Program-made: the position numbers and the translations under genes
In this document: positions 3,438-30,045 of the stretch, in pieces
Layout of the letters: every line of letters begins with the position of its first letter
Numbering within the stretch: position 1 is the stretch's first letter
Notes under the pieces: generated by a model
The model's database searches: none
The model's input: only the letters and a program-made list of their open reading frames with translations
What the model was told of the DNA's origin: nothing
NCBI GenBank assembly: GCA_964360965.1
Contig: CAYHYM010000003.1
Location: 30,001 to 62,000 of the forward strand
Length of the DNA: 32,000 bases
DNA from: an uncultured Gammaproteobacteria bacterium
GTDB lineage: Bacteria; Patescibacteriota; Microgenomatia; Daviesbacterales; UBA10151
Direction: 5' to 3'

Positions 3438-3508
3438 CTGCGGAGCAGGGATTCGAACCCCAATACCGACATTCAGAGTGTCGTGTCCTACCATTAGACG
3501 ACTCCGCA
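3438..3508 (-). tRNA. tRNA-Gln (anticodon CUG), CCA not encoded
   Basis: Reverse complement is TGCGGAG TC GTCT AATGGTA GGAC A CGACA CT-CTG-AA TGTCG GTAT TGGGG TTCGAAT CCCTG CTCCGCA G. It shows a 7-bp acceptor stem with U1:A72 (typical of bacterial tRNA-Gln), D, anticodon and T arms, and a TTCGAAT T-loop. The sequence after the discriminator is CTAG, not CCA. Confidence 0.85.
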
Positions 3509-3537: not shown

Positions 3538-4902
3538 TCACTCGGGGAATTTGCGAAGAAAAAAGCCCACTGCTCTTAATCTTACCATAGTTTCCTCTTC
3601 TCCCAAAATTTTAATGCTTTCAAATAAGGGTGGAGTAACAGTTTGTCCTGAAATGGCTACTCTGATTAACTGAAAAGTTTGAGTAGCAGATAAACCATGT
3701 TCTTCGCCAAATTGCCTAAATCTCTTTTCAAAATCATCAGGACTCCAAGGTCTTTTCATTTTTTCCAGAGTTTCCAGTATACCTCGCATAATACTTTTTA
3801 AATCTTGAGATTCTTCGCGGAGTTTACACTGAGCGAAGCGAATGTGCTCAGAATGACGTACGAGGATCTTTTTAAAAACATCCTTTTTATATTCCGGTTT
3901 TTCAAAAAGAAAATCAGTCAGTGGCACAAAATCAGATAACTTTTTAATCCTCTCTTTTATTAAAGGGACAACTGGTGCAATTTTTTCCTTATTGGGATGA
4001 CCCGCTTCGTCTGCGTAGCGAGGCGAGTCTACCAAGAACTCCTGCAGTCTTTGGGTTAACTCTTTATCAGACATCGCTCTTATATACTCCCCATTCATCC
4101 ACTCCAATTTAGTTAAATCAAAAACTGCTGCTGAGCTGTTAATATCTTTGATCTTAAAAAGTGAAGTCATCTCTTCTAAACTTAATAACTCCTTAGCTTG
4201 TGGTGGCATCCATCCTAAAAGTGCCAAAAAGTTAACCAAGGCTTCTGGCAAAAATCCATCTTTTTTAAAATCTAACACCCCAATGCTGCCGTGTCTTTTG
4301 GATAGTTTACTTCTGTCTGTTGCTAAAATATTGGGAAAATGTCCAAATTGGGGTAAAGCCCAGCCAAAGGCTTGATAAAGCATAATGTGCTTGGGGGTTG
4401 ATGAAATCCAGTCTTCGCCTCGAAGTACATGAGAGATATCCATTAAATGATCATCCACCACACTGGCCAAATGATAAGTAGGGAAACCATCAGATTTTAA
4501 AATTACAAAATCCTCCTGAATACTATTGTCAAACTCAATTTTCTTATTTCCCACTAAATCTATCCAGGAAGTTTTACCGCTCTTTGGGGTTTTGAAATAG
4601 ATAGCTTCATCTTGCTCATAGCTTAAGTCTTTATCCACCAGTTTTTTTGCATGCTCTTTATAAAAAGAGAGTCGTTCAGATTGTAAGATCGGACCTTCAT
4701 CCCAATTAAGCTTTAACCATTTTAAACTCTCATAAATTGCTTCATAACTTTCCCTGACCTCTCTTTTTTTATCAGTATCTTCAACCCGTAAGATAAACTT
4801 ACCATTTTGGCTTTTGGCAAAAAGAAAATCAAACAAAGCAGTTCTAATATTGCCTACATGTGGATTACCGGTTGGTGACGGAGCAAATCTAACCCTGATC
4901 AT
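3538..4902 (-). CDS. gltX: glutamate--tRNA ligase
   Basis: HIGH-type motif RFAPSPTGNPHVGN and KMSKS-type KLSKRHG. The track ORF reaches 5010, but that extension overlaps the divergent gene. I prefer ATG 4902 (MIRVRFAPSPTG), which lies 9 nt below a TATAAT. ATG 4911 is an alternative. The gene carries two GC-rich in-frame repeat insertions (see repeats). Confidence 0.9.
   Translation of the reverse strand: MIRVRFAPSPTGNPHVGNIRTALFDFLFAKSQNGKFILRVEDTDKKREVRESYEAIYESLKWLKLNWDEGPILQSERLSFYKEHAKKLVDKDLSYEQDEAIYFKTPKSGKTSWIDLVGNKKIEFDNSIQEDFVILKSDGFPTYHLASVVDDHLMDISHVLRGEDWISSTPKHIMLYQAFGWALPQFGHFPNILATDRSKLSKRHGSIGVLDFKKDGFLPEALVNFLALLGWMPPQAKELLSLEEMTSLFKIKDINSSAAVFDLTKLEWMNGEYIRAMSDKELTQRLQEFLVDSPRYADEAGHPNKEKIAPVVPLIKERIKKLSDFVPLTDFLFEKPEYKKDVFKKILVRHSEHIRFAQCKLREESQDLKSIMRGILETLEKMKRPWSPDDFEKRFRQFGEEHGLSATQTFQLIRVAISGQTVTPPLFESIKILGEEETMVRLRAVGFFLRKFPE
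3809..3865. repeat. GC-rich hairpin element (class 3-related), in frame in gltX
   Basis: The minus strand reads CCTCGTACGTCATTCTGAGCACATTCGCTTCGCTCAGTGTAAACTCCGCGAAGAATC. The hairpin is CTGAGC/GCTCAG. It shares GTCAT and CGCTTCGCT with the reverse complement of the cca element. It is read as VRHSEHIRFAQCKLREES. Confidence 0.6.
3999..4029. repeat. class 2 core hairpin, in frame in gltX
   Basis: GACCCGCTTCGTCTGCGTAGCGAGGCGAGTC compares with the miaA core GGCCCGCTTCGCAGCGAGGCGAGCC. Both are translated in the same relative frame: SPRY..EAGH versus SPRC.EAGH. Confidence 0.75.
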
Positions 4903-6833: not shown

Positions 6834-8188
6834 TTAGTTAATCTAACATCCACTCTTTCCATATCTCTGGGAAAAAGCGAAGCTTGCCTGATATTAGAAA
6901 GGTTTAAGACGTGCATGGTAATTCTTTCTAAGCCGAAAGAGAAACCTCCTTCTGACGGCATGCCAAATTTAAAAGCCATCAAATACATCTCAAAATCTTT
7001 AGGATCCATCCCATGTGCTTTAATTGATTCCACTAATTGTTTATAGTCATTAATTCTTTGAGAACCACTCATTATTTCAACCCCTCTAAATAGAAGGTCA
7101 TAGCTTAAGGAATAATCCGGATCTTTTGGATCAGGTTTGGTATAAAAAGGTTTTGATTGGGTTGGAAAATGAGTAATGGTCACAAAATCGCAGTGATGTT
7201 TTTCTTTTGCCCATTTGCAGATATCGATCTCATCCTGCGGAGTTAAATCTTTTTCTTTCCTGTTATCCCTTCCAAACTCTTTTAATATAACTTCCTGGGC
7301 TTCCCTAAGTGTCAATCTCGGAATATCTCCGAAAGCTATCTGTTCCATTCCAAGTTCTTTTAAAATATCACCACATCCATTTTCAGTTTGCTTTAATGTC
7401 TCCACTGCAACTTTTTCTAAAAGATCCAAAAGATCTTCAAACTCCACAAAACCTATCTCACAATCCATTTGAGTAATTTCCGATAAATGTCTTGTTGTCA
7501 CAGAAGGTTCTGCTCTATATGCTTTTGTGATTGTAAAAACTCTTTCAAGGGATGGAACCAACATTTGTTTGTAAAGTTGCGGGCTTTGGGTCAAAAAGGC
7601 TTTATGACCATAATAGTCAACTTTAAACACTTGTGCTCCTCCTTCTGTAGATGAGGCGACAATGGTTGGAACAACAATCTCAGTGCAACCAATTTCTTTT
7701 GCAGCCTTTCTGAATCCTTCCAAAATACTCGCTTGAACTCTAAATATTGCTTTAACTTTTGGATGGCGCAAAGTGAGAGAGCGAAAATCCAAAAGGGTTG
7801 GTAGTTGTAAATCCAAATCTTTTCCTCCCATATCAAACGGTAGCTCTTCTGCTTTTGACAAGATTTCCATGGAATCTGCAGATATTTCTATTTCACCTGT
7901 GGGAATATTTTCATTGACCAGATTTTCTGGCCGCTTGTTAACTTTTCCAGTTATACAAACTACATCTTGGGAGTGTAGGCTACCCACCTCGAAGGTGGGC
8001 TCTGACTCCTTCGAGGTAGATTTTGTCTGTTGTGATACTACCACTTGTATTAATCCACTTCTATCTAAGATATCCAAAAATAAAATCTTGCCATGGTCAC
8101 GGCGGGTTTGCACCCACCCACAAACCTCAACAGATTCCCCAACTTTTTTACTACAATCTAGAATGAGAGTACGTTCCATAAATGTCAT
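6830..8188 (-). CDS. aspS: aspartate--tRNA ligase, archaeal/type-2 form (possibly non-discriminating)
   Basis: About 450 aa class IIb aaRS. FLTQSPQLYKQ is the Asp-type signature, motif 2 is YRAEPSVTTRHLSE and motif 3 is GGFSFGLERITM. The second ATG at 8179 (MERT...) is an alternative start. It contains an in-frame repeat at 7975-8020. Confidence 0.88.
   Translation of the reverse strand: MTFMERTLILDCSKKVGESVEVCGWVQTRRDHGKILFLDILDRSGLIQVVVSQQTKSTSKESEPTFEVGSLHSQDVVCITGKVNKRPENLVNENIPTGEIEISADSMEILSKAEELPFDMGGKDLDLQLPTLLDFRSLTLRHPKVKAIFRVQASILEGFRKAAKEIGCTEIVVPTIVASSTEGGAQVFKVDYYGHKAFLTQSPQLYKQMLVPSLERVFTITKAYRAEPSVTTRHLSEITQMDCEIGFVEFEDLLDLLEKVAVETLKQTENGCGDILKELGMEQIAFGDIPRLTLREAQEVILKEFGRDNRKEKDLTPQDEIDICKWAKEKHHCDFVTITHFPTQSKPFYTKPDPKDPDYSLSYDLLFRGVEIMSGSQRINDYKQLVESIKAHGMDPKDFEMYLMAFKFGMPSEGGFSFGLERITMHVLNLSNIRQASLFPRDMERVDVRLTK
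7975..8020. repeat. class 1 palindromic element, in frame in aspS
   Basis: GTAGGCTACCCACCTCGAAGGTGGGCTCTGACTCCTTCGAGGTAG. The hairpin is CCCACC/GGTGGG. The right end GACTCCTTCGAGGT matches the miaA and cca copies. It is read as STSKESEPTFEVGSL. Confidence 0.75.
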
Positions 8189-10430: not shown

Positions 10431-10471
10431 CACCTCGCAGGTGAAGAAAATGCAGTTACACCTGCGAGGTG
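10431..10471. repeat. perfect 13-bp inverted repeat CACCTCGCAGGTG-N15-CACCTGCGAGGTG between recJ and cca
   Basis: The arms at 10431-10443 and 10459-10471 are exact reverse complements. Each arm is itself a CACCT..AGGTG mini-palindrome. Confidence 0.85.
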
Positions 10472-10521: not shown

Positions 10522-11934
10522 ATGAACTACTCATTACCTAACGAGGTTAAAAATATTTTAGAAAAGTTTAAAAAAGCCAAATTTCAAATTTATATTGTGG
10601 GAGGAGCTGTCCGTGATCTTTTAATGGAAAAAGGGGTTAAAGATTGGGATTTCACCACTGATGCCAAACCGGAGGAGATTATAAAATTATTTCCGGAAGG
10701 TTTTTACGATAACAAATTTGGAACAGTAGGAATTCCTATAGAAGTGGGAAAAGACACTTTGGATGGTGGCAGGCTGAAGCGAAGCGTAATCCATGACTCC
10801 TCCGAGGTGGAAGTATATGAAATCACCACCATGCGAAAGGAAGGAGTATACAAGGATTACAGACACCCAGACAAAGTGGCATGGACAGATAAAATTGAAC
10901 AAGATCTAGGCAGACGTGACTTTACTGTTAATGCCATTGCCCTTTCCGTCATCCCGACAAATGTCGGGATCCAATTAACAGATCCATTTAATGGCCAGCA
11001 GGATATGAAGGATAAGATAATCAAAGCCGTGGGTGATCCTGGCAAAAGATTTCAAGAAGATGCTCTTCGTTTAATAAGAGCAATCAGAATTGCCACCCAG
11101 TTAGAATTTGACATAGATGAAAAAACTTATTCTGCCATCAAAAAAAATGCTCATCTTTTAAAAGAAGTTTCCCGGGAAAGAATTCGTGATGAGCTCTTTA
11201 AAATACTTGCATCTGGCAATCCTCACTCCGGTATAGTGAAATTGAGAGAAACAGGCTTACTACAAATAATCTTACCCGAACTTGAAAGATGTTTTGGCAT
11301 TGTCCAGGAAGGACCCAAACATGATAGAGTTTATGATATTGGAAACCATTCCCTGCTCACTCTTCAACATACACCGTCTACTGATCCGTTAACCAGATTT
11401 GCAGCACTTTTGCATGATATTGGCAAACCGGACACTGTTAACACTGCTCAAGATGGCAATGTCACTTTTTACCATCATGATGTGATTGGTGGAAAATTGA
11501 TTTTAAAAATTGGGAAAAAGTTTAATTTATCGAAAAAGCAAAAAGATAAATTATACCGCTTAGTGAGATGGCACTTATTTACTGTTGATGAAAATCAAAC
11601 AGACTCTGCCATCAGAAGATTTATAAAAAATGTGGGGTTAGATTATATAGAAGATATGATGGCATTACGTATTGGAGACAGATTGGGAGGAGGGACCCAA
11701 AAAGCTGTCTCTTGGAGAATGGAAAAATTCGCTGATCGAATAAAACAAGTCCTTAAAAAACCATTCTCTATTTCTGATCTAAAAGTAAATGGCCATGATG
11801 TAATGGAAGTTTTAAAAATCAAACCAGGCCCCAAGGTTGGTGAAATCCTCCAAAAACTTTTTGAAGAAGTCCTAGAAGATTCATCTAAAAATAATCGGAA
11901 TTATCTTATTGATAGAATGAAGGAACTTGGTTAG
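10522..11934 (+). CDS. cca: CCA-adding tRNA nucleotidyltransferase with HD domain
   Basis: IVGGAVRDLL, the RRDFTVNA motif and HD-domain LLHDIGK...YHHD. I prefer ATG 10522 (MNYSLPNEV...), which lies 7 nt below TAGAAT. The track start at 10423 covers intergenic repeat DNA. Two in-frame repeat insertions are present. Confidence 0.88.
   Translation: MNYSLPNEVKNILEKFKKAKFQIYIVGGAVRDLLMEKGVKDWDFTTDAKPEEIIKLFPEGFYDNKFGTVGIPIEVGKDTLDGGRLKRSVIHDSSEVEVYEITTMRKEGVYKDYRHPDKVAWTDKIEQDLGRRDFTVNAIALSVIPTNVGIQLTDPFNGQQDMKDKIIKAVGDPGKRFQEDALRLIRAIRIATQLEFDIDEKTYSAIKKNAHLLKEVSRERIRDELFKILASGNPHSGIVKLRETGLLQIILPELERCFGIVQEGPKHDRVYDIGNHSLLTLQHTPSTDPLTRFAALLHDIGKPDTVNTAQDGNVTFYHHDVIGGKLILKIGKKFNLSKKQKDKLYRLVRWHLFTVDENQTDSAIRRFIKNVGLDYIEDMMALRIGDRLGGGTQKAVSWRMEKFADRIKQVLKKPFSISDLKVNGHDVMEVLKIKPGPKVGEILQKLFEEVLEDSSKNNRNYLIDRMKELG
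10765..10810. repeat. class 1 palindromic element, in frame in cca
   Basis: GGTGGCAGGCTGAAGCGAAGCGTAATCCATGACTCCTCCGAGGTGG. It shares GGTGGC...GACTCCTCCGAGGTG with the miaA copy. It is read as GGRLKRSVIHDSSEV. Confidence 0.75.
10948..10971. repeat. class 3 mini-hairpin GTCATCCCGACA-AA-TGTCGGGATC, in frame in cca
   Basis: Perfect 9-bp palindrome ATCCCGACA/TGTCGGGAT. It is read as VIPTNVGI within ALSVIPTNVGIQLTD. Confidence 0.75.
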
Positions 11935-17352: not shown

Positions 17353-17379
17353 TTATTTTCACCACCTCCCTGAGCAGTT

Positions 17380-19090: not shown

Positions 19091-19120
19091 AATATAACTT
19101 ATGAGTACAATTGTTGTCAA
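19091..19120 (-). promoter_or_regulatory. DUF4446 gene promoter TTGACA-18-TATATT
   Basis: On the minus strand, TTGACA lies at 19120-19115 and TATATT at 19096-19091, 13 nt before the ATG. It directly abuts the P3-like repeat. Confidence 0.5.
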
Positions 19121-19157
19121 CTACGTTCATGTAAACGTTCATGTAAACTGAACATAG
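19121..19157 (-). repeat. copy of the RNase P RNA P3-position hairpin (24/25 identical) with a 12-nt internal tandem duplication
   Basis: The plus strand reads CTACGTTCATGTAAAC[GTTCATGTAAAC]TGAACATAG. The reverse complement of rnpB 22426-22450 is CTACGTTCATGTAAACTGAACGTAG. Confidence 0.8.
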
Positions 19158-19176
19158 TCAATCAAGTAAAATTTAA

Positions 19177-19202
19177 CACCTCGGAGGTGGACTCTAACTC
19201 CT
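19177..19202. repeat. class 1 element (short form), intergenic
   Basis: CACCTCGGAGGTGGACTCTAACTCC. The left end is identical to the miaA copy (CACCTCGGAGGTGG). ACTCTAACTCC is comparable to the aspS CTCTGACTCC. Confidence 0.7.
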
Positions 19203-19830: not shown

Positions 19831-19895
19831 CCTTCCACTTTGAATATAAAAAAATGAAATTTTTATAAATTCAAAGTTAAAAGGAGGTGAAAAAT

Positions 19896-22404: not shown

Positions 22405-22689
22405 GCCTAGGAAGAAGGATGATTGCTACGTTCAGTTTACATGAACGTAGAGGAAAGTCCAGACAGCAAAGAGCAGGGTGTCCGGCGTAAGACGGAGGTC
22501 GTAAGATCCAGTTAGAGCAACAGTGACGAACCGAGGTAATGCTCGGATGAAACGGGCAATCCTCCCCGCTGCAATCCTAGAATCGGTCAGGTTGCTCGCC
22601 TGATGACCGGAGTAAGGAGCATTAGATAAATGATCATCAATCCTGACTAAATCGGGATGAACAGAATCTGGCTTACTCTCATCCTAGGC
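22405..22689 (+). ncRNA. rnpB: RNase P RNA (bacterial type), compact at about 285 nt
   Basis: GAGGAAAGTCCAGAC..GCAGGGTG (P4 5' strand and J4/5 region) lies at 22450-22480. ACAGAATCTGGCTTA (P4 3' strand) lies at 22661-22675. The 5' GCCTAGG..GGATGA pairs with the 3' TCATCCTAGGC (P1), and a T-run follows. Ends are good to about 10 nt. Confidence 0.88.
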
Positions 22690-23652
22690 ACTTTTTTCTT
22701 CTAATACTTCCATCCAAACTACTTGCAAAACAACCACAATCGGTACCGCCAAAAGTGCTCCCCCAAATCCTAAAAGTCTGGTCCCCACAGCCACAGCCAA
22801 AATAATAATTAAGGGATTTAAGCCTACTGCTCTTTTCATAACTTGCGGCACTATCAGATTATTTTCCAGCTGCTGAATAATAAAATACCAACCGACAACA
22901 GCAGCTGTTATAACCGGAGAAATAGTCAGCGCCAAAATAACTGCCGGAATTGCGGCAATGATCGGTCCAATAACCGGCACCACCTCCATGATTGCAGCAA
23001 GTAAAGCCAGAGGTAGCGCATAGGGAATATTTAAAATAATCAGCCCCAAATATACCAGCAATCCAATAATAATACTCAAAAACAACTGGCCCCTTACCCA
23101 TGCTCCCAGCTTTTCCTCTATTCTGATGATAGATTTTCTGATCTGTCCTGATCTTTCTCCAAATAAAGAAGGAGTTTTTTCTTCTAAACTCTCTTTTTCT
23201 AAAAGCAGATAGAAGGTTAAAACTAAAACAAAAATCACCGTGATAAGATTACTGAATACTTCCAGGGTTATGGAAAAGATATTTTTGGAAAGATTGACCA
23301 ATTGTGACTGAAAAACCGTGTCGTTAACATCTGACAGGTTAAATTGATCGGCTAGTAAAGGCGGAAGAGCAGAAATTAACCTGTTGCTTTGTTCAATAAG
23401 CGGCGGCAATAAAATGGCCAAAATGCCTGCCACTGCTGCTATTATGAAAATGTATGAAATGATAATTCCCAATGCTTTAGGCAATTTTAACTTAGTAAAA
23501 AAATTCACCAGAGGAGAAAGAGCAGACATCAAAATTACTGCCACAAATAAAAGGATTAACAGATCTCTTATTAAGTAAAGCACCCAAAGACCCAAAATAA
23601 AAATGGTGATAAAAATAATTGTTTTATGTGAAATATCAATTTTTCTTGGCAT
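22684..23652 (-). CDS. AI-2E family transporter (PerM/UPF0118-like permease)
   Basis: 322 aa polytopic membrane protein. It has the typical AI-2E layout and a C-terminal block (IAAIPAVILAL...QQLENNLIVPQVM...LNPLIIILA). Its start overlaps the miaA stop by 17 nt. Confidence 0.75.
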   Translation of the reverse strand: MPRKIDISHKTIIFITIFILGLWVLYLIRDLLILLFVAVILMSALSPLVNFFTKLKLPKALGIIISYIFIIAAVAGILAILLPPLIEQSNRLISALPPLLADQFNLSDVNDTVFQSQLVNLSKNIFSITLEVFSNLITVIFVLVLTFYLLLEKESLEEKTPSLFGERSGQIRKSIIRIEEKLGAWVRGQLFLSIIIGLLVYLGLIILNIPYALPLALLAAIMEVVPVIGPIIAAIPAVILALTISPVITAAVVGWYFIIQQLENNLIVPQVMKRAVGLNPLIIILAVAVGTRLLGFGGALLAVPIVVVLQVVWMEVLEEKSA

Positions 23653-24661
23653 TTTTTTTATTTATAGCACTATCATACCATTTAGCTACCAAGTTTTCTA
23701 TTTGAAGAGAGTAATCTTTACCTGTAATATCAAACCAATTAATACTCTTTTCCTTTTTAAACCATGTTAGCTGACGTCTTACATAGCCGTGGATTTTGTT
23801 TTGCATTATTCTAATCAGCTCATTCTTATTTTTAATTTTACCCTCCAAATAATCTGCCAAAACTCCATACTCTAACCCTAATTCTCTCATTCTTTTAAGC
23901 GATAAGCCATTTCCATGAAGTTTTTTTGCCTCCTCAATCATCCCCTGGTTTATGCGAGCTACAACTCTCTCATCCACTCTTTGATATAAAATCTTACGCG
24001 GAGCACTCAACCCTATTTTTAAAACATTATAAGATGCAACACCACCTCGGAGGTGGCCCGCTTCGCAGCGAGGCGAGCCGTAAGGACTCCTCCTAGGTGA
24101 AATATCAAGCTCGATTGCCCTTATTAACCTTCTTGAATTCTCCCTATCAGATTGATTTAAACTTTCCCATTTTTCAGGAGAAACCTTTTTTAACTTTTCT
24201 TGTAACTCTGCTTTAGATAATTTAGCCAGTCTATTTCTTAATTTTTTATCTACAGGTATGGCCAAATTTGGCAACCCCTCAAATATCGCTTTTAGATATA
24301 AACCTGTGCCACCCACTATAATTGGCAGCTTCCCCTTTGCCCTAATTTCCCCAATCACCCTGTCTGCATCTTTAACATAATCAGCCACACTGTATTGTTT
24401 TTTTGGAGAAACCACATCATACATCCAAATTTTTATTCCATCTATTTCCCAATAACCTATATCATTAGACCTACAAGGTCTTATGCGTTTGACCTCATAG
24501 GTCGAATTAGATGGCATCTTGCCGGTGCCTATATCCAGTCCCCCATATATTTGTCTGGAATCACAAGATACCAACTCACCATTAAATTTCTTGGCCAAGT
24601 AAAGTGCCAAATCAGTTTTACCTGTAGCGGTCGGTCCCAAAATAACTAAAAGTTTTTTCAT
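23636..24661 (-). CDS. miaA: tRNA dimethylallyltransferase
   Basis: P-loop ILGPTATGKT, then CDSRQIYGGLDIGTGK and later RRQLTWF. It contains a 58-nt in-frame composite repeat at 24042-24099. Confidence 0.88.
   Translation of the reverse strand: MKKLLVILGPTATGKTDLALYLAKKFNGELVSCDSRQIYGGLDIGTGKMPSNSTYEVKRIRPCRSNDIGYWEIDGIKIWMYDVVSPKKQYSVADYVKDADRVIGEIRAKGKLPIIVGGTGLYLKAIFEGLPNLAIPVDKKLRNRLAKLSKAELQEKLKKVSPEKWESLNQSDRENSRRLIRAIELDISPRRSPYGSPRCEAGHLRGGVASYNVLKIGLSAPRKILYQRVDERVVARINQGMIEEAKKLHGNGLSLKRMRELGLEYGVLADYLEGKIKNKNELIRIMQNKIHGYVRRQLTWFKKEKSINWFDITGKDYSLQIENLVAKWYDSAINKKNAKKN
24042..24099. repeat. full-length composite palindromic element (class 1 termini plus class 2 core), in frame in miaA
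   Basis: CCACCTCGGAGGTGG-CCCGCTTCGCAGCGAGGCGAG-CCGTAAG-GACTCCTCCTAGGTG. The termini are imperfect inverted repeats and the central part is a CGCTTCG/CGAGGCG hairpin. It is read as SPRRSPYGSPRCEAGHLRGG. Confidence 0.8.
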
Positions 24662-29772: not shown

Positions 29773-30045
29773 TCATTTAATCAGTCTCTTAATGGTTTTG
29801 CCTGCAGTAAAACCGGGAAGTTTTTTGCTGGGGATTTGAATAATCTCTCCTGTCTGAGGATTTCTGCCCCGCCTGGCAGACCTTGATCTTATCAGAAATG
29901 TACCAAAACCAGAAATAACCACTTTCTCGCCACGAACCAAACTATCTCTTACTAAATTAAAGGTAGAATTGACTGCATCTTGAGCTGCTCTTTTGGTCAA
30001 ACTAGCTTTTTTGGCAACCTTTTCTATTAATTCGTTTTTAGTCAT
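29773..30045 (-). CDS. hup: HU family DNA-binding protein
   Basis: 90 aa: MTKNELIEKVA...GFGTF..R.R.AR.GRNPQTGE.I.IP....P.F..GK, the canonical HU/IHF pattern. Confidence 0.92.
   Translation of the reverse strand: MTKNELIEKVAKKASLTKRAAQDAVNSTFNLVRDSLVRGEKVVISGFGTFLIRSRSARRGRNPQTGEIIQIPSKKLPGFTAGKTIKRLIK

Follow-up and report, generated by a model that had tools for sequence, protein, structure and literature searches.

The stretch of DNA analysed here, called the window throughout, is a 32,000-nt segment (positions 30,001 to 62,000 of contig CAYHYM010000003.1, assembly GCA_964360965.1) from an uncultured bacterium of the GTDB lineage Patescibacteriota, Microgenomatia, Daviesbacterales; the closest homologues of its MiaA and AspS (AspRS) proteins are named Candidatus Daviesbacteria. 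Its miaA gene contains a short palindromic element at 24042-24099, which is the subject of this report. The 58 nt were verified as quoted in the original prediction, and the description given there was confirmed: the element is GC-rich (69%, against about 35-37% across the window) and has imperfect inverted repeats around a central hairpin (11-bp arms with one mismatch). The host gene and the parts of the element are as follows.

23636..24661, minus strand: miaA, the host gene (Pfam IPPT E 2e-53; PDB MiaA matches down to 1e-50)
24042..24099, minus strand (canonical orientation = mRNA sense): composite element copy, CACCTAGGAGGAGTCC-TTACGG-inner hairpin-CCACCTCCGAGGTGG, read as SPRRSPYGSPRCEAGHLRGG
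24089..24099, minus strand: left arm, CACCTAGGAGG, one mismatch to the consensus CACCTCGGAGG
24057..24077, no strand assigned: nested inner hairpin module, CCCGCTTCG-CAG-CGAGGCGAG
24043..24053, minus strand: right arm, CCTCCGAGGTG, within the local palindrome CCACCTCGGAGGTGG

Along the mRNA strand the element runs CACCTAGGAGG-AGTCCTTACGG-CTCGCCTCGCTGCGAAGCGGG-CCA-CCTCCGAGGTG. The outer arms, CACCTAGGAGG and CCTCCGAGGTG, form an 11-bp inverted repeat with a single A.G mismatch and a second hairpin, CGCTTCG-CAG-CGAGGCG, at the centre, and both strands fold into a nested structure (-30 to -31.6 kcal/mol, z -2.3 and -4.1). Orthologous miaA copies at four comparison loci (L197, L199, L200 and L322) all have the left arm CACCTCGGAGG. 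The copy itself is also present in three other independent assemblies from the same well (L001, L002 and L321), and contigs from Hainich groundwater well H51 encode a MiaA with no difference from that of the window. In L321, at 964-981 (Hain_H51 R3 assembly, 3x coverage), miaA equals that of the window over 1026 nt bar a 1-nt deletion, which falls in the GGGCC run inside the element (window 24056-24060) and breaks miaA into two open reading frames (ORFs), of 213 and 124 aa. Either low coverage produced an error at a GC hairpin, or the frameshift variant is genuine.

Anatomy and distribution of the hairpin family

The element is one of a dispersed palindromic family, as had been proposed. Within the window the arm CACCTCGRAGG (at most 1 mismatch) has 10 matches against 0.31 expected, and GACTCCTYCGAGGTG, the tail motif taken from the original prediction (at most 3 mismatches), has 8 against 0.43; the same consensus is found in other genomes. 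A generic repeat finder missed the family, the copies being too short and gapped, and motif searches recovered them. The search pattern suggested at the outset, CACCTC-N3-GAGGTG, returned chance matches only, the true spacing being N1-2.

GTDB species genomes were scanned with CCTCGRAGGAGT-N3-33-CCTYCGAGG, which gave at least 119 loci. Among the matches listed, to which the counts in this paragraph refer, 43 low-GC loci share one consensus: (T)(Y)CACCTCG(A/G)AGGAGTC-AAAGCC-CACCT(T/C)CGAGGTG. They come from Daviesbacteria, Levybacteria, Gottesmanbacteria, Curtissbacteria, Microgenomates-named genomes and two Hainich H51 bins, and also from several metagenome-assembled genomes (MAGs) that are deposited under other names or as bacteria without classification. 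The family's basic unit measures 34 nt: perfectly complementary 11-nt arms (CACCTCGRAGG / CCTYCGAGGTG) enclose a conserved 12-nt loop, AGTCAAAGCCCA. In the 32 canonical copies all arm cells are paired (352/352), and pairing is kept through compensatory double changes at three arm positions (A-U to G-C ten times, plus two single cases); none of 500 shuffles reaches the observed values, and slid registers also fall far short. The loop bases AGTC...CCCA are invariant in these copies. The arms occur in three types: A-type (CGAAGG/CCTTCG), which is the commonest, C-type (CGCAGG) and G-type, which contains GGAGG and CACCTCC. Folding of the canonical unit gives about -20 kcal/mol with z about -5.

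Longer forms carry additional small hairpins between GGAGTC and CCACC, and the cca and miaA copies of the window are two such types. The miaA copy had been put forward as the type copy of the family. It is not: it is an atypical composite in which an inner hairpin is nested and one arm carries a mismatch, and the canonical unit is the 34-nt form seen in aspS. In other Daviesbacteria, DNA encoding MiaA orthologues has the same outer arms and different centres: the L197 copy reads CACCTCGGAGGAGTCC-ATCCGA-CCACCTCCGAGGTGG, and the centres in L200 and L199 are longer. The inner-hairpin module, for its part, occurs free-standing or nested in other palindromes (window gltX, L260, L297, L216). At about 1737-1800 of L297 the inner hairpin (CCCGCTTCG..CGAGGCG) is nested in a palindrome GTCATTCCGGA...TCCGGAATC, an arrangement which indicates that small hairpin modules nest within each other.

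Each of the four relatives first reported in the window (in aspS, cca and gltX, the last as core only, and between genes) is genuine, and there is one more, at 10431-10471.

7985..8018, minus strand: A-type copy of the canonical 34-nt form within aspS, TACCTCGAAGGAGTCAGAGCCCACCTTCGAGGTG, translated as TSKESEPTFEV, at the beta3-beta4 connection of the oligonucleotide/oligosaccharide-binding (OB) fold domain
10765..10810, minus strand: long-variant copy in cca, CCACCTCGGAGGAGTC-ATGGATTACGCTTCGCTTCAGCCTG-CCACC, in orientation opposite to the gene, right arm decayed
10431..10471, no strand assigned: C-type-arm variant with AT-rich loop, CACCTCGCAGG-TGTAACTGCATTTTCTTCA-CCTGCGAGGTG, in the divergent recJ/cca spacer
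19176..19202, plus strand: partial copy between genes, consisting of the intact palindrome ACACCTCGGAGGTGG and, after it, a second half that has decayed, ACTCTAACTCCTATC
3999..4029, minus strand: inner-hairpin module alone in gltX, in frame, SPRYADEAG, +9 aa relative to L239

The inner type of the cca copy recurs in L213, L237, L285 and L306. The copy at 10431-10471 lies upstream of the start of aligned CCA-adding enzyme orthologues and is a sixth site, absent from the earlier list. Folding of the partial copy at 19176-19202 gave no stable structure.

The family is abundant in some genomes and missing from others. In 320 kb of carrier loci there are 58 sites, of which 15 are additional to the site through which each locus was found, and the window has 4-5 sites in 32 kb; copy density is roughly 0.5-1.8 per 10 kb in some genomes. 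Other MiaA-anchored Microgenomates loci have 0 sites in 768 kb, which implies an expansion confined to some lineages. In three genomes with the miaA copy, the 10 kb on either side of miaA (in L200, as far as the contig reaches) hold no further copy. Across 79 MiaA-anchored metagenome loci (785 kb), copies were found solely in the window's own contigs, and there were no orthologous filled sites. In Rfam 15 the window matches RNase P RNA and one tRNA only, the element giving no match at gathering score. A scan of viral contigs with the 15-nt palindrome returned 115 single-copy matches, about the estimated chance level, and gave no link to phages.

The surroundings of the copies carry a one-sided signature. 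On the left flank T stands at -2 in 37 of 49 copies and G never at -1, and nothing similar is seen on the right; so short a motif is not diagnostic. With these two T-Y bases added, the short unit is effectively 36 nt, or 12 codons. There is no target-site duplication, flank identity being at chance level (for k=2, 8 against 6.0 expected; for k=3, 1 against 1.1).

Conservation is strongest at the level of nucleotides. Across five species the left arm of the miaA copy is 97% identical, whereas 40 flanking, highly conserved miaA codons from the same species have an overall identity of 70%, and of 48% at third positions. One and the same miaA DNA is moreover read in two ways: some species have SPRRSP..HLRGG and others TSEESLRATVRGG; L322 has the nucleotides of the other miaA copies and reads them as TSEESLRATVRGG after a 1-base upstream shift and a 1-base insertion in the right arm. 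Judged from these alignments, it is the DNA that has been conserved and not the peptide. Arms are perfect in 74% of 73 intragenic copies. Where they are not, wobble-compatible mismatches are about as frequent on the sense strand (8) as on the antisense (9), and this lack of a bias towards the mRNA strand gives no sign of selection on an mRNA hairpin specifically.

Several observations concern other sequences met in the scans. High-GC matches (53-nt palindromes of Methylobacterium, Streptomyces and others) were rejected as unrelated sequences that fit the pattern by chance; the Methylobacterium sequence is a 53-nt GC-rich palindromic repeat, GGCCTCGAAGGAGTCCTCCAG...CTGGAGGGCTCCTTCGAGGCC, common to L203, L211, L215, L223, L244, L245, L251, L279, L303, L305 and L312. 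The SRP178908_co2_35 MAG (CAYLXC01; L227, L290, L302) is filed as 'uncultured Gammaproteobacteria bacterium'; it has about 36% GC and an AspS 82% identical to that of the window, and from sequence its taxonomic label looks wrong. MAGs filed likewise under 'binchicken' isolate names (for example L207, L220, L237, L285) have the element and about 36% GC, and they may be mislabelled too.

Within the window, gltX has another in-frame extra segment, VRHSEHIRFAQCKLREESQ, at 3805-3861 (minus strand, aa 384-402), which is not in the GltX of L227, L239 or L294. Its DNA (GTCATTCTGAGC...GCTCAG...GAAGAATC) is that of another family of palindromic repeats, so gltX holds two unrelated inserts. One tRNA gene, at 3438-3508 (minus strand), adjoins gltX. 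The intergenic copy is adjoined by a hairpin, CTACGTTCA..TGAACATAG, at 19120-19157, and a hairpin at 22426-22450 within the gene for RNase P RNA is nearly identical to it (96% complementary over 23 nt). That gene, a class A bacterial RNase P RNA (125 bits), occupies 22407-22691 (plus strand) between comM-like and AI-2E transporter genes.

Placement in genes and protein loops

In-frame copies in several housekeeping genes had been claimed from the window, and the claim holds well beyond it. In the listed low-GC loci, 47 of 51 strict copies sit in ORFs that reach at least 30 codons, and mostly hundreds, to either side; random 34-nt segments of the same loci satisfy this in 76% of cases (binomial p = 0.003). 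A looser pattern puts 75 of 86 copies in long ORFs. By Pfam, the hosts include PurL, the CCA-adding enzyme, NAD synthetase (NadE), AspRS, MurB and prepilin peptidase, as well as a G5/3D-domain protein, polyprenyl synthetase and a glycosyltransferase. A specificity for tRNA enzymes was considered and is ruled out by this annotation of hosts in other genomes; the tRNA theme among the four window hosts is coincidental. One further observation on these hosts is that PurL of L302 has an in-frame VIPANAGIQ...LDPRLRGDDK, derived from another palindromic family.

Copies lie in either orientation relative to the gene (27 same, 18 opposite; p = 0.23), and every intragenic copy is open in the frame of its host. 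Of the unit's six frames, five contain no stop codon, and each of these five is represented among copies of the family in ORFs. The canonical unit never occurs in its one closed frame, and variant copies lacking that stop do use it. Element length varies, and some variants are not multiples of three, so the in-frame state must owe much to selection among insertions and to small adjustments of the flanks.

Orthologues with and without the element can be compared at single positions. In 120 Daviesbacteria AspS orthologues (73-82% identity) the loop is empty in about 75% (IQVV-xxG-GKAxD-LHPQDVV) and holds the element in about 25%. The filled forms include TSKESKPTFEV, HLEGVKAHLRG, the long HLGGVMASQAQPATIRG and a form with swapped arms, along with half and decayed copies, and the inserts are read in at least two frames; at the DNA level a filled allele is the empty one with 12 codons added. 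In a similarity clustering (UPGMA, unweighted pair group method with arithmetic mean) filled alleles are scattered among empty ones, in a tree too star-like for counting gains and losses. This interspersion points to several gains and/or losses at one loop. The CCA-adding enzyme is empty in L003, L029 and L260 and filled in L266, L290 and the window, and there is a second insertion site in L290 and L260. The suggestion that the inserts are lineage-specific is supported.

The miaA site is less simple. The RAIEL-LKIGL stretch of MiaA (window aa 186-212) is hypervariable among 120 Daviesbacteria proteins: the loop has 21-23 aa, encoded by AT-rich codons, in element-free Daviesbacteria and 27 aa in the window, and PDB MiaA proteins have a linker of roughly 20 aa at this position. 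The element was said to add about 20 residues without breaking the frame. The frame is indeed intact, but the net gain of MiaA is only about 5 aa, in a loop that is hypervariable. About 30 of the 120 proteins hold the element, either as SPRRSPYGHLRGG or, in another frame, as TSEESLRATVRGG. Other MiaA loops contain WIPAYAGMTG, PQDDKLRLGIIRS, LPRHFVPRND or SSLRGAKRRSNL, peptides typical of other GC-rich palindromic repeats (loops with such repeat-derived peptides: P0018, P0020, P0093, P0007 and P0023; L004 and L013 around 10540-10640), which suggests that several GC-rich palindromic families use that loop. MiaA has another extra segment, aa 48-72 (24446-24520), about 20 aa relative to all PDB MiaA proteins and found throughout Daviesbacteria; it is not GC-rich and has low confidence in the structural model.

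Structure prediction places both inserts between regular elements of the fold. In the AlphaFold2 model of the window MiaA (mean predicted local distance difference test score, pLDDT, 80.6) the element-encoded aa 190-205 have pLDDT below 50 and no secondary structure, and this stretch falls between a helix (175-186) and a strand (211-218). In the AlphaFold model of AspS (mean pLDDT 73.4) aa 61-66 are below 50, between OB-fold strands 46-51 and 76-85. The inserts in MiaA and AspS are thus predicted to lie in flexible surface loops.

Origin and maintenance of the hairpins

The feature in miaA is probably one copy of a selfish hairpin DNA family of some Microgenomates lineages (Patescibacteria, or candidate phyla radiation, CPR), comparable to Rickettsia palindromic elements (RPEs) and translated through by the ribosome. 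Such hairpins would multiply as selfish DNA in some genomes and be absent from others. Insertion would take place either way round, and genic copies would persist only where about 12 extra residues are harmless, in flexible surface loops. With five stop-free frames, most insertions would leave the gene readable, and the ribosome would translate through. The copy in miaA would be an old, vertically inherited insertion in a highly tolerant loop, which has acquired the nested inner hairpin and the arm mismatch. We infer mobility from these patterns, and single-strand hairpin transposition of the HUH, IS200-IS605 or REP type would be the most consistent mechanism because there is no target duplication and a one-sided T-Y motif stands beside the hairpin. 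Copies may also be homogenised by gene conversion.

Several points weigh against a family that is selfish and nothing more. No transposase or other mobilising gene was identified in work that covered loci of 8-20 kb and included no systematic search for one. The empty and filled pairs that were compared are not very recent, which leaves the exact junctions undefined, and that the element is translated through is something we infer from the intact frames. The arms are too clean for neutral decay (97% identity in the left miaA arm beside 48% at flanking third positions; 74% perfect arms), and a neutral selfish insert would need ongoing gene conversion, re-insertion or functional constraint to remain so. 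The several distinct inserts at the same AspS and MiaA loops likewise suggest target preference or recombinational spread, and not random insertion followed by filtering.

These last two points lead to the most serious alternative, although we hold it to be unlikely: the palindrome could be a DNA-level signal under purifying selection, either a recognition site for a protein that binds DNA or processes single-stranded DNA, or a DNA-uptake or recombination signal that drives its own passage from one related species to another through transformation and homologous recombination of gene segments. It would account for the cross-species identity of the left miaA arm, for the 100% arm pairing with compensatory changes and the invariant AGTC..CCCA of the loop, and, given that mismatches show no bias towards the mRNA strand, for a form kept as double-stranded or either-strand DNA. 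Filled AspS alleles lying among empty ones, with the same loops hit repeatedly, are also as expected if alleles recombine. However, the copies have plainly been inserted, as blocks of about 12 codons that include nested modules, and are not motifs built by point mutation, and their density (0.5-1.8 per 10 kb) is roughly tenfold below that commonly given for classical uptake sequences. The element is missing from many close relatives, loss is tolerated, as decayed and half copies show, and there is no known candidate binding protein. The arms might instead act in mRNA, as mimics of the Shine-Dalgarno (SD) and anti-SD sequences that cause pausing or internal initiation, or as a regulatory or stabilising hairpin. 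Pausing or internal initiation was raised in the original prediction on the grounds that the termini spell a perfect SD sequence, and part of that argument stands: GGAGGTG is a real SD upstream of window genes (for example at 17363-17369 and 19883-19889), G-type arms contain GGAGG and CACCTCC, and the hairpin is stable as RNA. Yet most copies are A-type and some C-type, in which the perfect SD is gone and perfect pairing is retained; the SD-like bases are paired in the hairpin, and the miaA copy has no start codon at a suitable distance. Neither the occurrence of both orientations (27/18) nor the equal wobble compatibility of the two strands (8/9) supports pausing or internal initiation, and a role in mRNA appears very unlikely.

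The added peptide, too, might be what is selected, for instance as Arg/Ser/Pro-rich RNA-binding loops in tRNA-handling enzymes. All four window hosts (MiaA, AspRS, the CCA-adding enzyme and GluRS) bind tRNA, and some frames yield basic peptides such as PRRS and HLRG, but five frames of the same DNA give unrelated peptides and the miaA copy itself is read in two frames across species. This diversity of frames largely refutes a function of the peptide; with hosts elsewhere that are not tRNA-related, inserts that are predicted to be disordered and most orthologues lacking an insert, we regard it as highly improbable. The chance that the element is an assembly chimera, an adaptor or a sequencing artefact is close to negligible: GC-rich hairpins are error-prone, and L321 (3x) does have its 1-nt deletion inside the element, but four independent assemblies agree in sequence at the site, and the family occurs at orthologous positions in samples from Rifle, Hainich and other groundwater and in other, unrelated sequencing projects. 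Of these readings, the selfish, RPE-like hairpin family has the best support.

Known repeat systems and significance

The parallel with RPEs drawn in the original prediction is supported, and they are the closest analogue. As summarised in PMC10969869, RPEs (Ogata et al., 2000) are repeats of about 100-150 bp in Rickettsia, roughly half or fewer of them intragenic. Going by the same summary, the present family is like them in consisting of dispersed palindromes in frame in unrelated housekeeping genes of a small AT-rich genome, and in being fold-compatible, lineage-specific and without a transposase known to that account (PMC10969869). It differs in the phylum of its hosts, in its size (34-58 nt), in its form as a GC-rich simple hairpin with nested modules, in having about 92% of copies intragenic, and in arms that are near-perfect across species. 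Given its size, homology to RPE consensus sequences is implausible. The family resembles RPEs in how it works without being one of them. The original prediction knew of no equivalent description for this kind of genome, and a literature search found no description of such repeats in CPR/Patescibacteria.

Repetitive extragenic palindromic (REP) sequences and REPINs, mobilised by REP-associated tyrosine transposases (RAYTs; Y1 HUH enzymes), are extragenic and have GTAG or CGTC at one end (PMC3733652). The family shares with REPs the GC-rich imperfect palindrome of 20-40 nt, the high copy number, the lack of a target duplication and an asymmetric short motif beside the hairpin (PMC3733652), but it is intragenic (47/51) and its head is T-Y-CACC. 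Elements of the insertion sequence (IS) IS200/IS605 type combine a hairpin end and a lack of duplication with insertion beside a short conserved motif on one side; the family's T at -2 and missing G at -1, on the left side only, are too short a motif to be diagnostic of that type. Transposable elements of the miniature inverted-repeat kind (MITEs), such as the Coxiella QMITEs and intragenic copies of the enterobacterial repetitive intergenic consensus (ERIC), are, like the family, non-autonomous repeats with terminal inverted repeats, and occasionally lie in frame within ORFs (PMC10969869, PMC5896051); the present family is far smaller, has no target-site duplication and no known parent IS, and is intragenic as a rule. 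The GC clusters of yeast mitochondria resemble it as short mobile GC-rich palindromes with modular nested variants in an AT-rich genome, and differ in being organellar, mostly intergenic and unrelated in sequence (PMC4478555). The DNA uptake sequences (DUS) and uptake signal sequences (USS) of Neisseria and Pasteurellaceae are, like the family, short conserved DNA motifs, often genic, conserved as nucleotides and tolerated in variable protein segments (PMC2346458). In contrast to byp / hop translational bypass elements, copies of the family never interrupt the host frame. Uptake sequences are 9-12 nt long, accumulate by substitution and reach about 1 per kb. The family differs from DUS/USS in being made of inserted hairpins of 34 nt or more (+12 aa) at 0.5-1.8 per 10 kb.

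Selfish DNA inside intact essential genes has so far been a Rickettsia curiosity, and the family would add a second, independent case from the CPR, more extreme than the first, with a 12-codon module and more than 90% of copies intragenic. It partly explains the odd low-complexity inserts in CPR proteins, which homology searches and gene callers can mishandle (the split miaA of L321 is an example), and it offers a marker of recent genome dynamics in uncultured lineages. Because the nucleotides are conserved and the same loops are used again and again, one may ask whether a hairpin-specific enzyme or a drive mechanism is at work. The hairpin could, though this is unlikely, be an actively kept DNA signal (the site of a still-active single-strand, HUH-type enzyme, or an uptake or recombination signal) that homes repeatedly to the same loops of conserved genes and stays near-perfect across species. 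If so, it would amount to a general, ongoing mechanism that remodels the surface loops of essential proteins in ultra-small CPR bacteria.

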